A stretch of DNA of 64,000 nucleotides. Source: a virus. Within the stretch, counting starts at the first letter, position 1; each line of letters begins with the position of its first letter. The notes beneath the pieces are model-generated. The model was given only the letters and a program-made list of their open reading frames with translations, had not been told where the DNA came from and did no database searches. Shown here one piece after another: positions 13,878 through 19,850 of the stretch. The stretch lies in UHGV virus genome UHGV-0167633; one strand, 5' to 3'. Made by a program: the position numbers and the translations under genes.

Positions 13878-14044
13878 GTATTTTTAAGTCGCGAATGCTA
13901 TCTTTTCGCATCATATTGACCTTTTAATCGTTCAGGCTTATAGTTCCGCCGTCGTAGCAAATTCTGCGACCGGGTTTAGCAGCCTGAATGATTGTGCGGA
14001 CAGCCGCAGATATCCGATATTGCGGTATTTTTGTGTCCGTAAAA

Positions 14045-14175
14045 CCGCGTTACGCCCAAATTATGGTGGGGCGTGATGGGGAGGCTTCGGCCTGCTGGTT
14101 TCACAATCGCCAGTCTGCTAACCCCGTCACGTCCTGCCACCTGTTTAGCAGCGGGTAGCAGGTTGTTAAACCTGA
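14045..14175 (+). ncRNA. candidate c4-like antisense regulatory RNA
   Basis: ORF-free, densely hairpinned segment between operator and icd (CGCCC/GGGCG, GGCTTCGGCC tetraloop, CTGCTAA/TTAGCAG, CAGGTT/AACCTG adjacent to icd RBS); position as in P1 c4. Confidence 0.3.
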
Positions 14176-14191: not shown

Positions 14192-14413
14192 ATGGTTAAT
14201 GCCAATCCTTGCGCGCGCCCTGAATTTATCTGGCGTTTCTATTCCTGTAAAAAACACCACTATCACTTCGTTATCGCAGCAACAGAAGACGAAGCACGCT
14301 CTCAATTGCCTGATGGCCCCTGCATTTTTACTGCCCGTTTTTCTACTGACTCGCGCAATTCACTTAGTTACTGGAACCTCCCCTTCTCTGCCGACGTTCA
14401 GGGGGGTTTATGA
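14192..14413 (+). CDS. icd: Icd-like small protein upstream of ant
   Basis: 73-aa ORF with RBS GAGG, stop overlapping ant start (ATGA); size and position as P1 icd. Confidence 0.45.
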   Translation: MVNANPCARPEFIWRFYSCKKHHYHFVIAATEDEARSQLPDGPCIFTARFSTDSRNSLSYWNLPFSADVQGGL

Positions 14414-15801
14414 AAACACCTCTCGTCACCCGTAATGAAATAGCCGAAGCGATCGCCTTGCATACAATCTGTATGCCGACACGGGAGATCCCCGGCGCAA
14501 TTGCTAACTATTTCATGATAACCAGGCGTTTTTATACCCGAACAGATAAGGCTGTGATCAACAGGCTACTGATAGCCGAGATCAGGGATTATTTGATTGA
14601 ACAAGGACGTCTACGTTACGCAACAGTGGCAGCAGAAATGAGAAAGGAGGCACATAGAATGACCAGTAATAATTTGAATGTTAAAAAACCAGAATCTGTT
14701 GCTTCAGCTACGCCATCACCAGCTGTGAATGTTATCTCCAACACTGGAGACACAATCGACAGCCAGACGCTGTTAAAGATGGTTAATGAGGCGCGCAAGC
14801 TATGTGGGGAAAATGAGATCCGTAATAACGATTTTCTCAATAGAATTAAGGATGAACTTGATGGGGAATTTTACGAAACTTTCGTAAAATCCCATGGCAC
14901 AAGGGCCGGGCGCTCTTTTGAGGTCATAACCATGACCTACAAACAAGCCCTGCGCGTTGCTGCTCGCGAATCGAAAGCGGTCCGCCGTTCGCTACATACC
15001 ATGATTCAGTCATTGGAACCTATAAATGTAGAAAATCAGCCTGATGAAATTCCCGTTCTGGAATGGCAGGGAGTACGCGTCGTGACAACCGAGACTCTTG
15101 CTAGAGGGTATGGCACTACACCTATTCGTATTCAGCAGAACTACAATCGCAATGAAGAACGATTTGTAGAGGGTAAACACTTCTTTAAAATCAAAGGAGA
15201 TGAGATAAAAAGTTTGCGACTATCTTTTAGCGAGTTGCAAATTTCCCCCAAGACCAGATCCTTAATACTCTGGACCGAACGCGGAGCGGCACGCATGTCT
15301 AAGATCGTAGACACAGAGCAAGCGTGGGCATTCTTTGAAAAACTGGAAGACAGCTACTTCCGGCAAAAAGAACAGCAACCGGTCACAATCCCCCAAACAT
15401 TACCAGAAGCTCTACGCCTGGCTGCCGAGTTGGCAGAGCAGAAAATGCAGTTGGAACAACAGCTGGTGGCCGCAGCCCCTAAAGTAGATTTTGCCGACCG
15501 GGTATCAGTGGCTAATGGAATCCTGATCGGGAACTTTGCAAAGGTCGTTGGACTTAAGCAAAACGCCCTTTTCTCATGGTTGCGCCAGAACGGCATTCTC
15601 ATGGCTTTTGGTGCGCGCAAAAACGTACCGCGCCAGCAGTACATTAACGCCGGGTATTTCACGGTGAAAGAAGTGGTGCTGGATGATGAAAATGGCTACC
15701 AGATACGGCTGACGCCCCAATTAACGGGTAAAGGCCAGCAGTGGTTAACTCGCAAGCTACTTGATGCTGGCTTGTTAAAACCGGTGGCGTCCTTGTCTTA
15801 A
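14410..15801 (+). CDS. ant: antirepressor Ant (Bro-N/KilA-C type)
   Basis: 463-aa ORF; C-terminal KilA-C-like block (DFADRVSVANGILIGNFAKVVGLKQNALFSWLRQNGIL) shared with downstream kilA paralog. Confidence 0.75.
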   Translation: MKTPLVTRNEIAEAIALHTICMPTREIPGAIANYFMITRRFYTRTDKAVINRLLIAEIRDYLIEQGRLRYATVAAEMRKEAHRMTSNNLNVKKPESVASATPSPAVNVISNTGDTIDSQTLLKMVNEARKLCGENEIRNNDFLNRIKDELDGEFYETFVKSHGTRAGRSFEVITMTYKQALRVAARESKAVRRSLHTMIQSLEPINVENQPDEIPVLEWQGVRVVTTETLARGYGTTPIRIQQNYNRNEERFVEGKHFFKIKGDEIKSLRLSFSELQISPKTRSLILWTERGAARMSKIVDTEQAWAFFEKLEDSYFRQKEQQPVTIPQTLPEALRLAAELAEQKMQLEQQLVAAAPKVDFADRVSVANGILIGNFAKVVGLKQNALFSWLRQNGILMAFGARKNVPRQQYINAGYFTVKEVVLDDENGYQIRLTPQLTGKGQQWLTRKLLDAGLLKPVASLS

Positions 15802-16039
15802 CGTATTCAGACCAGGATTTGCCATAAATTACAGGCATGTGTACGATATGCCCAACCCTGTTTTTCAGGGGAGGCGCAACGTTATGCGGGGGTTATGAAC
15901 TCCTGGATGCGTAGCCTCCAGACAGAAAAAACCCTCGCTACAACGTTGCATGGAGGCAACCAGCGAGGGCATTCCTTATGTCTGAACAACAAGAGGATAG
16001 CCGCAAGCAGTTGCTGTTGCAAGTATGCGGAGCTTCGTA

Positions 16040-16156
16040 ATGACTCTTCAAAAAGCTTGCAAGTGGATTGTGACCAACATCATTGTTCCTGTCATCATCG
16101 GAGCTTCAAGTTCTGTGTTGGCATCAGTGATTGCCTCACTTCTCCACATTGCATAA
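16040..16156 (+). CDS. candidate small hydrophobic peptide (38 aa)
   Basis: ATG with GGAG 9 nt upstream; MTLQKACKWIVTNIIVPVIIGASSSVLASVIASLLHIA; followed by intrinsic terminator. Not in ORF track (below length cutoff). Confidence 0.3.
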   Translation: MTLQKACKWIVTNIIVPVIIGASSSVLASVIASLLHIA

Positions 16157-16210
16157 CAACATTGAAGGGCGTTAGTTCGCAGTGTAACAGCAGCGCGTTG
16201 CGCCCGAACA

Positions 16211-16246
16211 GGCCACAGGGTAAAACCTGTGGCCTTTTTCGTTTTA
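16211..16246 (+). terminator. rho-independent terminator
   Basis: GGCCACAGG-GTAAAA-CCTGTGGCC followed by TTTTTCGTTTT. Confidence 0.55.
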
Positions 16247-16271
16247 TCCAGCCACAAATCCACATTGAAAA

Positions 16272-16299
16272 ACGCCTTATACAAAAAAACCTGCCAGCA
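16272..16299 (-). terminator. rho-independent terminator (minus-strand reading)
   Basis: CCTGCCAG-CAAA-CTGGCAGG; on minus strand followed by TTTTTTTGT. Confidence 0.45.
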
Positions 16300-16352
16300 A
16301 ACTGGCAGGTTTCTGAGCAGATCGACCAACCCGATCTGGATCGAGTCAGAAA

Positions 16353-16369
16353 AATTTGCTCTAATAAAT
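16353..16369 (+). promoter_or_regulatory. C1-repressor-type operator upstream of kilA (Op53-like)
   Basis: TTTGCTCTAATAAATTT, 16/17 to consensus, 70 bp upstream of kilA. Confidence 0.55.
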
Positions 16370-16440
16370 TTCGTTTTCTAAGTGCAAAGAATCACCATTC
16401 CGAGCTGGTGATTGAAGGTTGATGCAAATTTGGAGAAAAA

Positions 16441-17241
16441 ATGCAACAAACATTCAATGCAGATATGAATATATCAAACCTTCATCAAAATGTCGATCCT
16501 TCAACCACTCTGCCCGTTATTTGTGGTGTTGAAATTACGACCGACCGCGCTGGCCGTTACAACCTTAATGCTCTACACAGAGCGAGCGGACTCGGTGCCC
16601 ATAAAGCGCCAGCTCAATGGCTAAGAACGCTGTCAGCAAAACAGCTCATCGAAGAGCTTGAAAAAGAAACTATGCAGAATTGCATAGTTTCGTTCGAAGG
16701 TCGTGGCGGCGGCACTTTTGCCCATGAATTGCTCGCTGTGGAGTACGCAGGTTGGATTTCTCCCGCGTTTCGGCTGAAGGTAAACCAGACATTTATCGAC
16801 TATCGAGCCGGAAGATTACAACCAGCTATTCCGCAGAGTCTCCCTGAAGCTCTCCGTTTGGCTGCCGACCTGGCAGAGCAAAAGCAACGCCTGGAGCAAA
16901 AAATGCTTATGGATGCCCCTAAAGTCGAATTCGCCGAACGCGTTGCTACCGCCAGCGGGGTTCTAATCGGCAACTATGCCAAAGTGCTCGGCCTGGGCCA
17001 AAACTATCTCTTCACCTGGTTGCGTGATAACGGAATTCTGATCGCAACCGGTGAACGCAGGAACGTCCCCAAACAAGAATACATATCCCGTGGGTATTTC
17101 ACCCTTAAAGAAACCGTGATCGATACAAGCAACGGAAGCAGGATTTCTTTCACGACTCGTATAACCGGCAAAGGTCAGCAGTGGCTAATGAAGCGATTGC
17201 TTGATGCTGGTGTGCTGGTACCTGTCGCGGCAACGCGCTAA
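16441..17241 (+). CDS. kilA: KilA (KilA-C domain protein)
   Basis: 266-aa ORF (same length as P1 KilA); KilA-C block PKVEFAERVATASGVLIGNYAKVLGLGQNYLFTWLRDNGIL. Confidence 0.7.
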   Translation: MQQTFNADMNISNLHQNVDPSTTLPVICGVEITTDRAGRYNLNALHRASGLGAHKAPAQWLRTLSAKQLIEELEKETMQNCIVSFEGRGGGTFAHELLAVEYAGWISPAFRLKVNQTFIDYRAGRLQPAIPQSLPEALRLAADLAEQKQRLEQKMLMDAPKVEFAERVATASGVLIGNYAKVLGLGQNYLFTWLRDNGILIATGERRNVPKQEYISRGYFTLKETVIDTSNGSRISFTTRITGKGQQWLMKRLLDAGVLVPVAATR

Positions 17242-17270: not shown

Positions 17271-17780
17271 ATGCTGGCTAAAGTCACTTTCCTGAGCTGT
17301 ATAACGATGAGCGATTTTACTTTTTCTGGCTATGAATTGGCCTGCTTTGTAACACACTCCGGTCTATCCCGCAGCGCCGGGCATATCCTGTCGCAATGTG
17401 CAAATCTCGCGGCAACAACCAGTGAATACTTCATTCACAAGCCTCACCGCATGATCGCGGCAGAAACTGGTTATAGCCAATCAACCGTCGTTCGTGCATT
17501 CCGTGAAGCTGTAAACAAAGGAATCCTGTCGGTAGAGATTGTTATCGGCGATCACCGTGAACGCCGCGCTAACCTGTACCGGTTTACACCATCCTTTTTG
17601 GCCTTCGCACAACAAGCCAAAAATGCGCTGATTGAAAGCAAATTAAAGATCTCTTCAGCGGCAACCAAGGTTAAAGCTGTTCTCGCTAAGACATTGGCTT
17701 TATTTAATTTTTTATCCACACCCCCATGTCAAAATGATACCCCCTCTCCCTGTCAGGATGACGTGGCAATAAAGAATTAG
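17271..17780 (+). CDS. RepL-like lytic replication initiator (winged-helix)
   Basis: 169-aa ORF directly after kilA; HTH-like segment (SQSTVVRAFREAVNKGIL); start uncertain (alternative ATG at 17307). Confidence 0.4.
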   Translation: MLAKVTFLSCITMSDFTFSGYELACFVTHSGLSRSAGHILSQCANLAATTSEYFIHKPHRMIAAETGYSQSTVVRAFREAVNKGILSVEIVIGDHRERRANLYRFTPSFLAFAQQAKNALIESKLKISSAATKVKAVLAKTLALFNFLSTPPCQNDTPSPCQDDVAIKN

Positions 17781-17846
17781 AAGTCTCAATGTCGAAATAG
17801 AAAAAGATCAGTTTCCGGCGCTGCCGGAACGACCAAACTCAAAAAA

Positions 17847-18113
17847 TTGACTTCATGGATCGCTGGTGCAAAAGCAAAGGCCGACAATCTGCGGTTATCC
17901 AAAAAACGCGCTCAAAAACATGAGTTCCAGCAGAAAGTTGAGGCAGCGGCCCGGAAATATGCTTACCTGAAGAGCAAGCGTTCTCCTGATATTGGCGGGA
18001 TATCAAACTTCGATAATCTGCCGCATTGCATGACGGTAAACGAAGCTCTGGATATGGTCCTATCTACAAGAAAAGAAAAGGAATTTTATATTCCAACTGG
18101 TTTTCGCGGATGA
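17847..18113 (+). CDS. hypothetical protein
   Basis: 88-aa ORF; no motif recognised. Confidence 0.3.
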   Translation: MTSWIAGAKAKADNLRLSKKRAQKHEFQQKVEAAARKYAYLKSKRSPDIGGISNFDNLPHCMTVNEALDMVLSTRKEKEFYIPTGFRG

Positions 18114-19035: not shown

Positions 19036-19217
19036 TACACCCGCTGCGGTGTGCTTGGGGCTATCAGCTTCAGGTATTACCCGAAAAGCAGATAGAAGAA
19101 AGCCCCAGTAAACATTATGCGTCCCGCACAACGCTTAACATTAACCGGGGCCATACCTATGCTTAGCGTACTTAGATTAATCCTCTCCTCTGTCAAGGAG
19201 CAAGGAATTTTTTACTG

Positions 19218-19850
19218 CTATGCCGCCTTTCCAGTTATGGATTCTGCGACAAGAACAACCCCATGCTTACTTCGATCCGGATGTTCACTCCATATCTCGG
19301 ATTCAGGAATACTTTCCCCGTCATAGCAAACACGTTCGCCGTCAAACGGGTAATACTGAGCGGCATCGGTGTCGAGGATAAACACTTTTAGCTCGGATGA
19401 GCGACGGGCGATGTGTTGCCAAAGAGCTTTTCCACCTTCGTATTGCTCATTATCACTGAGCAAAACAACACCAGCTTTTGAGGCTACGGTTTCGTAAACA
19501 AAAGTGGCTAAACCGACATCCCGGACGATTCCATCAACCACGATACCTTCAATCTGGGCAACATCGCTATCCTCCCAGAACTTCCTTACCAGTACGCCTT
19601 CAAGCTGCGGGCGACGTTGAAGTTCAAGAGTAGCGACAACCTTATGCCGCATATCACCATCGATAACAGAAGGCGCAGCCTCTATTACAGCTGCAAATGG
19701 GGTTTTGGAATCCCATATAACCTGGTAAAGCACACCCTGGATGGTAACGCCGTCCAGGATCGAAAATCGACGAGCGACAGTACCCGGGGAGTACGACATT
19801 GGAATCACAGCCATTTTAGAGTCCCCCTTTAACAGTACAGGCACAAACAT
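19218..19850 (-). CDS. hypothetical protein (own promoter region and upstream terminator)
   Basis: 210-aa ORF (likely start at MAVIPMSY); preceded by AT-rich region and bidirectional hairpin. Confidence 0.4.
   Translation of the reverse strand: MFVPVLLKGDSKMAVIPMSYSPGTVARRFSILDGVTIQGVLYQVIWDSKTPFAAVIEAAPSVIDGDMRHKVVATLELQRRPQLEGVLVRKFWEDSDVAQIEGIVVDGIVRDVGLATFVYETVASKAGVVLLSDNEQYEGGKALWQHIARRSSELKVFILDTDAAQYYPFDGERVCYDGESIPESEIWSEHPDRSKHGVVLVAESITGKAA

Follow-up and report, generated by a model that had tools for sequence, protein, structure and literature searches.

The ldr/rdl loci of Escherichia coli K-12 (LDR-A to LDR-D; Kawano et al. 2002, as described in PMC4147584 and PMC8594479) are toxin-antitoxin systems of type I whose antisense gene lies within and opposite the 5' untranslated region (UTR) of the toxin gene (PMC8594479), and rdlD is annotated in this arrangement opposite the ldrD 5' UTR in K-12. 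A translated leader of the ldrX/mok kind has been proposed for ldr and is unconfirmed (PMC4147584, PMC8594479). The Fst/Ldr superfamily, which is represented by par of pAD1 and its relatives, is characterized by the motif P/D/S/T-XXX-G in a transmembrane helix (Weaver 2020, PMC7472228), and a survey from 2017 placed Ldr on no mobile element (PMC5367252). Here we analyzed a stretch of 64,000 nucleotides (nt) of the virus genome UHGV-0167633, referred to as the window, which represents a P1-like phage-plasmid. Inserted between its genes ant and kilA lies what we consider, with good confidence, to be a type I toxin-antitoxin cassette of the LDR type, consisting of a predicted folded mRNA of about 392 nt, a putative toxin of 38 amino acids and a predicted antisense RNA of 62 nt, for which a role in stabilization is proposed.

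The ant gene (14410-15801) and kilA (16441-17241) are separated by a gap of 639 base pairs (bp) that consists of two unrelated parts, an insertion at 15789-16282 and the P1 kilA control region at 16283-16440. Direct comparison revealed that the homology to P1 stops at window position 15788, ten bases before the P1 ant stop codon, and restarts at 16283. When the gap was searched against 50,697 phage records, the only part with matches was 16283-16440, which is 98-99% identical to P1 49738-49895, P7, SJ46, RCS47 and 18 other records, while the insertion was missing from P1, P7 and all 22 matching records. The distance between ant and kilA is long because a 494-bp LDR-type cassette has been inserted just 3' of ant, at the immI/kilA junction of P1 and in front of the normal kilA control region.

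Evidence for the assignment to LDR comes from the nucleotide sequence of the whole locus. An nhmmer profile consisting of K-12 LDR-A to D, a Salmonella Ldr locus and a Lelliottia copy, without any sequence of the subtype found here, produced a single match in the 64-kilobase (kb) window at 15854-16239 on the plus strand (profile positions 4-374, E=5.3e-27). The Lelliottia copy, when used as a blastn query, retrieved loci annotated as "type I toxin-antitoxin system toxin Ldr family protein" with about 78% identity over the 5' UTR. In the alignment every landmark of the K-12 ldrD locus was present in the same order (promoter, 5' hairpin, 5'-3' closure, antisense gene opposite the 5' UTR, Shine-Dalgarno sequence (SD), small ORF (open reading frame), 3'-UTR partners and terminator), and the homology extends over the full length of the toxin mRNA of about 390 nt. 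The following features were located, with folds referring to the minimum free energy (MFE) structure and to the RNAalifold consensus.

15789-16282: 494-bp insertion carrying the whole LDR-like module and replacing 16 bp of P1 around the ant stop codon.
15819-15847, plus strand: predicted sigma-70 promoter of the toxin mRNA (TTGCCA-17-TACGAT), from the promoter scan, with a start near 15854.
15854-16245, plus strand: predicted toxin mRNA of about 392 nt, from the LDR profile match; MFE -164.9 kcal/mol, z=-7.7.
15856-15870, plus strand: 5'-terminal hairpin CCCUG...CAGGG, from the MFE fold.
15873-15881, plus strand: 5' half of the 5'-3' closing helix, GGCGCAACG, matching 16196-16204 exactly as its reverse complement.
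15987 to 15926, minus strand: predicted Rdl-like antisense RNA of 62 nt, from an Rfam rdlD match, alignment to K-12 rdlD and its fold.
15978-16040, plus strand: leader ORF of 20 codons, MSEQQEDSRKQLLLQVCGAS, with its ATG at 15978 and its TAA overlapping the toxin ATG (TAATG).
16010-16021, plus strand: 5'-UTR half of a 12-bp long-range helix, GUUGCUGUUGCA, from the MFE fold and the consensus.
16022 to 15994, minus strand: predicted antisense promoter TTGCAA-17-TATCCT, aligning with TTGTAA-17-TATTCT upstream of K-12 rdlD.
16029-16032, plus strand: GGAG serving as SD for the toxin ORF, at a spacing of 7 nt from its ATG.
16040-16156, plus strand: toxin ORF of 38 amino acids, MTLQKACKWIVTNIIVPVIIGASSSVLASVIASLLHIA, a single predicted helix with P17xxxG21, at the ldr position in the LDR alignment.
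16183-16194, plus strand: 3'-UTR half of the 12-bp long-range helix, UGUAACAGCAGC, from the MFE fold and the consensus.
16196-16204, plus strand: 3' half of the 5'-3' closing helix, CGUUGCGCC, from the MFE fold and the RNAalifold consensus.
16210-16245, plus strand: intrinsic terminator that would end the toxin mRNA (fold -24 kcal/mol, z -4.9).

Closer examination of the predicted toxin mRNA revealed conservation at both of its ends and in its long-range structure. The -10 hexamer of the toxin promoter aligns with TAGAAT of K-12 LDR-D, Salmonella and Lelliottia, and the predicted start at 15854, 7 nt past TACGAT, is exactly where the LDR-profile match begins. Hairpins of different sequence occupy the same 5' place in K-12, Lelliottia and Pantoea. 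Across the seven aligned modules, 100% of cells were paired in the closing helix and 95% in the 12-bp helix (compared to 29-63% in slid controls), three pairs of which carry compensatory changes; for both long-range helices together the value was 96.8%, compared to 29-63% with one strand slid by 1-3 columns. RNAalifold recovered both of these helices, the hairpin of the antisense region and the terminator from the seven modules, with compensatory changes in 10 of the 50 consensus pairs, and the terminator stem is kept across LDR loci with compensatory changes as well. In the full-length MFE fold the toxin SD is paired with 3'-UTR sequence. The modeled mRNA layout corresponds to that known for hok mRNA and proposed for ldr.

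The antisense RNA is predicted to lie opposite the 5' UTR, with the SD at 16029 and the ORF at 16040 downstream of it, which corresponds to the antisense geometry of about 60 nt seen in LDR. The rdlD family of Rfam (RF01813) matched the minus strand at 15926-15987 over model positions 1-66 with 21.1 bits (E=0.77 over 4227 families, or about 2e-4 by our own arithmetic if treated as a test of one family). The same model scores 87 bits in K-12, 70.1 bits in Salmonella and 50.5 bits in Lelliottia, so that the window forms the far end of this graded series. Window position 15987 aligns with the annotated 5' end of K-12 rdlD, and the fold of the 62-64-nt RNA resembles that of RdlD, in that an unpaired 5' tail is followed by a single long hairpin and a U6 run (-25 kcal/mol, z=-3.9), with a U-A/C-G compensatory change between two clades in the stem formed by 15932-15939 and 15962-15969. 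In size, ends and fold the predicted antisense RNA therefore resembles that of LDR. Its promoter is conserved in all seven aligned modules; with 8 of 12 consensus matches it falls under the threshold of the promoter scan.

The leader ORF matches the ldrX/mok idea for ldr introduced above. A GAGGG lies 8 nt upstream of the leader start, and both this motif and the leader start codon are located inside the antisense target. A leader start (ATG, GTG or TTG) is found at the same aligned position in the window, Pantoea, L022 and Lelliottia modules and one column off in L016, and in all five modules the leader frame remains open until it reaches or passes the toxin start. In K-12 ldrD an in-frame TTG extension runs into ldrD, whereas the window leader ends at the toxin ATG.

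The first-pass annotation, which was made from the sequence of this stretch, had singled out a hydrophobic 38-codon ORF at 16040-16156 preceded by an SD, followed by a plus-strand and then a minus-strand terminator. All of these elements are present, with the SD GGAG at 16029-16032, the terminators at 16210-16245 and 16283-16314, and a peptide that has a grand average of hydropathicity (GRAVY) of 1.44 and zero acidic residues. An upstream ATG at 16025 was considered as the toxin start and rejected, as it is lost in near-identical copies, and 16040 was taken as the start. DNA pattern scans independent of the ORF recovered four further peptide variants: I10V in P1-like contigs, MMFVNACKWIGNIILQIAIGVAGSVLASVILAHFHLA in Pantoea, and MTFVNACKWVGNIILQIAIGVAGSVLASLILAHFHLA and MKLVNACKWFMTHIVIPFGVGTATSVAGSMILAHFHLA in metagenomes. 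The relatives with the same toxin frame are only about 74-76% identical in DNA, and a purine-rich SD is found at the same place in every relative aligned. Frame, length (37-38 codons), stop position and hydrophobicity were kept through a change of about 50% of the amino acids and one 3-nt indel, so that the reading frame, whose lack of conservation in relatives had been named as grounds for abandoning the first-pass proposal, proved to be retained. Because frame, length and stop position are kept in divergent relatives, the ORF appears to be more than a chance occurrence. What the sequence shows for the cassette as a whole is its homology, the layout of its elements and the conservation of both the RNA structure and the reading frame.

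The motifs common to the five peptide variants are ACKW, G21, SV and H-x-A. AF2, run on the single sequence, returned one helix spanning residues 3-37 (pLDDT, the predicted local distance difference test score, 84), with K5, K8 and W9 on the N-terminal side. The small ORF begins with MT(L/F) as in Ldr, and its P-x-x-x-G, like that of Ldr, spans residues 17-21: the window has P17-V-I-I-G21 and L022 has P17-F-G-V-G21, with Q replacing P in Pantoea and L016. On the basis of this start and of the P17/G21 register the peptide reads as a diverged Ldr homologue; alternatively, the ORF may have been replaced on an LDR scaffold rather than diverged. Ldr has 35 residues compared to 38 in the window peptide, which differs further in being without the WHDLAAP core, the Trp preceding the C-terminus and the basic C-terminal tail. 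Instead, its C-terminus (...SLLHIA) contains no K, R, D or E, and its only Trp is W9, beside K8. Judging from these N-terminal charges, the membrane orientation is probably inverted relative to Ldr.

With the Fst/Ldr superfamily the peptide shares the small single-helix form and a PXXXG in the hydrophobic segment (P17-G21), while the signature Trp and charged C-terminus (PMC7472228) are missing, and Fst systems use a 3'-overlapping antisense RNA, unlike the cassette described here. Similarities to hok/mok/sok of plasmid R1 are best regarded as functional analogy only. They include the plasmid location, the logic of a stable folded toxin mRNA closed between its 5' and 3' ends, and an antisense RNA aimed at the start region of a leader ORF rather than at the toxin start, with coupling between leader and toxin, and the layout here, with the leader start in the antisense target, the TAATG overlap and the 5'-3' fold-back, would be the same. 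Hok, with about 50 amino acids, is unrelated to the window peptide, which has no Pfam match, and the Rfam sok model (RF01794) reached only 16.8 bits at the cassette, compared to a gathering score of 59, so that membership in Hok/Sok is not supported. As a separate observation, weak sense-strand sok matches of 17-29 bits were found in the 5' UTR of every LDR-type mRNA examined (L005, L006, L003 and window 15888-16027, plus strand), which hints that the hok and ldr leaders are distantly akin in structure or sequence.

A number of observations weigh against reading the insert as a working LDR-type cassette. The peptide had no match in Pfam or NCBIfam at E<=10 and was missed by the Pfam family Ldr_toxin (PF13940), for which the positive controls LdrD and Salmonella Ldr scored 93.7 and 53.3 bits, respectively; none of the peptide variants was recognised by Ldr_toxin or NCBIfam either. 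Comparison with Ldr by hhalign placed residues 13-26 on Ldr 13-26 with P17 and G21 in register, at a weak probability of 8%. The rdlD match, with 21.1 bits, is below the Rfam gathering score of 50 bits required for formal membership, and the Pantoea relative had no rdlD match at E<=1. Conservation of the leader ORF is weaker evidence than it looks, given that the antisense promoter constrains the same bases. The covariation statistics are based on only seven sequences from two clades and are supportive, not conclusive, and the substitutions by codon position compared to Pantoea (14/10/19) are only mildly coding-like. Chromosomal ldrD/rdlD has been reported to be without post-segregational killing (PMC5367252), so that an addiction role is not guaranteed. 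For the cassette, transcripts, toxicity, leader coupling, relative RNA stabilities and biological role are what we infer. In summary of the comparison with LDR, locus homology and architecture agree, while the toxin is not recognised by Pfam nor the antitoxin by Rfam, and in view of these two failures of formal membership together with the agreement in homology and architecture we have filed the locus as a variant of the LDR kind. As a type I module the cassette is real and probably functional.

To follow the cassette beyond the window, we compared plasmid and genome records. The insert recurs with 98-100% identity in about 21 P1-like plasmids from E. coli, E. albertii and Salmonella, including the 100% identical E. 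coli plasmid NZ_CP122494.1, compared to 510 plasmid records that carry the adjacent kilA region, and it was found in 10 of 5426 complete E. coli genomes. Conservation across P1-like genomes, suggested as a check in the first-pass annotation, thus holds for these plasmids and does not extend to the 22 matching phage records, P1 and P7 among them. More distant relatives reside on a 4.4-kb ColE1-type plasmid of Pantoea agglomerans (74% identical) and a 107-kb Lelliottia plasmid (71% identical). An exact 20-mer scan of species-representative genomes detected only one Pantoea contig, which is identical to the P. agglomerans plasmid. All four non-P1 copies of the toxin subtype adjoin an RNAI gene and are located on ColE1-type plasmids, which, together with the P1-like hosts, places this toxin subtype on mobile replicons. 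The peptide ORF was not annotated in any carrier record examined, and most records are without any annotation over this stretch. A protein search with a 43-residue version of the peptide matched only one partial E. coli hypothetical protein, and a literature search with peptide strings found no paper.

Several copies are interrupted. In four plasmids (e.g. E. albertii pEA16-1_1, L025 1406-2500) an rve-type insertion sequence (IS) of about 1.1 kb resides in the cassette, flanked by a 6-bp duplication of 16022-16027. It parts the SD and toxin ORF from the promoter and 5' UTR and leaves the antisense gene and its promoter intact, which is how loss would be expected to proceed with an active toxin. 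Separately, IS1A abuts window position 15832 in two plasmids, E. coli E2 plasmid p1 (L026 1288-2000) and NZ_CP190335.1, and removes ant and the toxin -35 box. We did not rely on these copies as evidence for toxin silencing, as the IS1 end may supply a substitute -35 (TTGGAG, with an 18-nt spacer).

The alternative that survives best, though we regard it as unlikely, is that the insert is a decaying, non-functional LDR relic carried passively by some P1-like plasmids. Its rarity (about 4% of P1-like plasmids and the 10 E. coli genomes above), the existence of fragments and IS-broken copies and the position of the toxin outside the Pfam Ldr family would all be compatible with decay. However, the two promoters, the SD, the ORF, the two terminators and the two long-range helices are all intact and in register, copies from E. 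coli, E. albertii and Salmonella share 98.4-100% identity with I10V as the sole peptide change seen, and the ORF has been kept open in divergent relatives through an in-frame indel.

Other sequences related to LDR were encountered on further plasmids. Plasmids of Lelliottia (L003 2684-2776) and Klebsiella aerogenes (L007) carry a third toxin type on the LDR scaffold, the 30-residue peptide MTFKEALLLAVVTSVVGPVLVALIRHFFKF, which is missed by Pfam Ldr_toxin and whose antisense RNA, with 50.5 bits, barely attains the gathering score of Rfam rdlD; from the K. aerogenes copy the first ~96 nt of the module are missing. In 85-kb plasmids of Salmonella Newport (L004 2501-2562) only an Rdl-like hairpin, 82% identical to window 15919-15984, was present. 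It is located downstream of a KilAC antirepressor and a RelE/ParE pair, with convergent genes on either side, and represents either a remnant of the cassette or a hairpin reused as a terminator.

If the LDR-type cassette functions as its layout suggests, its own promoter would produce the mRNA of about 392 nt (15854-16245), which, by analogy to hok and ldr, would fold into a compact, translationally inert form with 5'-3' pairing, the 12-bp helix between 5' and 3' UTR and a sequestered SD. This mRNA would encode the single-helix membrane peptide as the toxin. The 62-nt antisense RNA (15987 to 15926), fully complementary to the 5' UTR including the GAGGG and start codon of the leader, would block translation of the leader and, through coupling, of the toxin, and its binding would probably trigger cleavage of the duplex. 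Upon loss of the plasmid and of the short-lived antisense RNA, translation of the stable mRNA would yield peptide that damages the inner membrane, which would make the cassette a stabilization or addiction module of the phage-plasmid. Plasmid stabilization is the function we prefer; phage exclusion or coupling to read-through of the ant operon are possible.

A more far-reaching combination, which we consider improbable, would treat the LDR regulatory RNA as a mobile scaffold for at least three toxins (Ldr, the 30-residue type of Lelliottia and Klebsiella, and the "NACKW...HxA" type with its charges at the opposite end) and would in addition have derepression of c4-icd-ant during induction or superinfection send transcription head-on through the antitoxin promoter, thereby releasing the toxin. 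If this were true, membrane damage would be tied to the lysis-lysogeny switch instead of, or in addition to, plasmid loss.

Transcription from upstream is also the basis of a very unlikely explanation, according to which the peptide is a phage accessory product, "kil"-like or related to lysis, that is made by read-through from the c4-icd-ant operon without an autonomous toxin-antitoxin function. Neither the sequence nor the terminator scan revealed a terminator between the ant stop codon (15801) and the cassette, so that immI transcripts must enter it, and in P1 this region encodes further small functions that kill the host (icd, kilA). On the other hand, the cassette has its own promoter that aligns with LDR promoters, the same cassette is found on ColE1-type plasmids without phage genes, and P1 and its close relatives are entirely without it. 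The small kil-type peptide that the first-pass annotation had offered as an alternative found no support.

The second part of the gap belongs to the P1 backbone. P1 features were mapped from the P1 GenBank annotation (window position = P1 coordinate minus 33455), and motifs were then located in the window.

16283-16314, minus strand: terminator of the P1 backbone, a hairpin followed by U7 (fold -22.4 kcal/mol, z -4.3), within the P1-identical segment.
16320, 16333 and 16339: three Dam sites, from the P1 annotation and motif location.
16337-16365, plus strand: promoter PkilA (P53), from the P1 annotation.
16355-16371, overlapping PkilA: C1 operator Op53/OrepL, TTTGCTCTAATAAATTT, from the P1 annotation and motif location.
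16468-16496, minus strand: promoter PaskilA (P53as), from the P1 annotation and found by the promoter scan as well.

The annotated start of the transcript antisense to kilA (P1 49915) corresponds to window 16460, and the minus-strand terminator, which was not listed by the simple terminator scan, lies about 177 nt downstream of it. This distance and its location in the P1-homologous part identify the terminator as an element of kilA control rather than of the toxin module. Most simply, judging from its position, it would end the kilA antisense transcript from PaskilA, and it may also serve as a back-stop of the ant operon. The minus-strand terminator thus comes from the P1 kilA control region, as do the C1 operator and the Dam sites, and this region is separate from the toxin cassette, whereas the first-pass annotation had merged the two. 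It had proposed an antisense transcript ending near 16272. The general class that it suggested, a small membrane-peptide toxin with a cis-antisense RNA, holds; the geometry was wrong, as the antisense RNA of the module, by homology to rdlD, is predicted upstream of the ORF (15987 to 15926). It is highly improbable that a convergent antisense RNA overlaps the 3' end of the peptide mRNA and ends at the minus-strand terminator (~16272-16316). Although the two terminators face each other at a distance of 38 nt, the minus-strand terminator is P1-identical DNA that is present without the peptide in every P1-type phage record matched (P1, P7 and 20 others), it is located at the expected end of the annotated PaskilA transcript, a transcript that ended there would stop short of the toxin mRNA and its end at 16245, and the antisense RNA of the LDR family sits 5' of the ORF.

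The idea that the real gene is instead the 175-codon plus-strand ORF (15895-16422), which the first-pass annotation had rightly judged not to be protein-like, or an ORF on the minus strand that a few RefSeq plasmid records list as "hypothetical protein" can practically be dismissed. Both ORFs exist, and PGAP annotated a 132-codon minus-strand ORF in some plasmids, but both cross intrinsic terminators (two in the case of the plus-strand ORF) and the C1 operator, their frames are not conserved in the Pantoea (where that of the plus-strand ORF is closed early), L016 and L022 relatives, most records annotate nothing here, and nucleotide conservation tracks the RNA helices and not these frames.

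Several features of the surrounding region were also noted. At 13938-14144 Rfam detects the C4 antisense RNA together with its a1/b1 targets, and a sub-threshold match to isrK (13951-14032, plus strand, 43.7 vs 50 bits, Rfam) overlaps this c4 a1/b1 target region, presumably because the Salmonella isrK region and P1-type immI loci are known to be akin. The middle of ant (14993-15388) is not homologous to P1 ant1, the encoded protein has 463 compared to 347 amino acids, and the flanks are 92-98% identical to P1; from its sequence the gene appears to be a mosaic antirepressor allele. In repL (17271-18113), which encodes the initiator of lytic replication, codon 170 is an in-frame TAA (17778-17780), compared to Lys (AAA) in P1 and an E. 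albertii relative, which divides the gene into ORFs of 169 and 88 codons without an indel and may be either a true nonsense mutation disabling lytic replication or a sequencing error. Further downstream, a plus-strand sok match (RF01794) at 19049-19222 exceeds the gathering score (62.3 vs 59), with no Hok-like ORF following it and a minus-strand ORF of 210 codons (19218-19850) abutting it. It has the appearance of either what is left of a hok/sok leader or a second type I locus whose toxin is not recognised.

With Ldr placed on no mobile element in the 2017 survey (PMC5367252), the location of the window cassette on phage-plasmids, and of its subtype on ColE1 plasmids as well, sets it apart from the described loci. 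The cassette accounts for the odd 640-bp "intergenic" gap in a minority of P1-like plasmids, and it has been overlooked by genome annotation. The same RNA-regulatory design, with a peptide that is missed by profile databases, moves on phage-plasmids and ColE1 plasmids, and some of the P1-like carrier plasmids are relevant as carriers of resistance genes. Together with its relatives the cassette provides a natural comparison set for asking how far toxin and RNA scaffold can diverge independently and whether ldr-type toxins are controlled via a leader ORF, as has been proposed and never confirmed.

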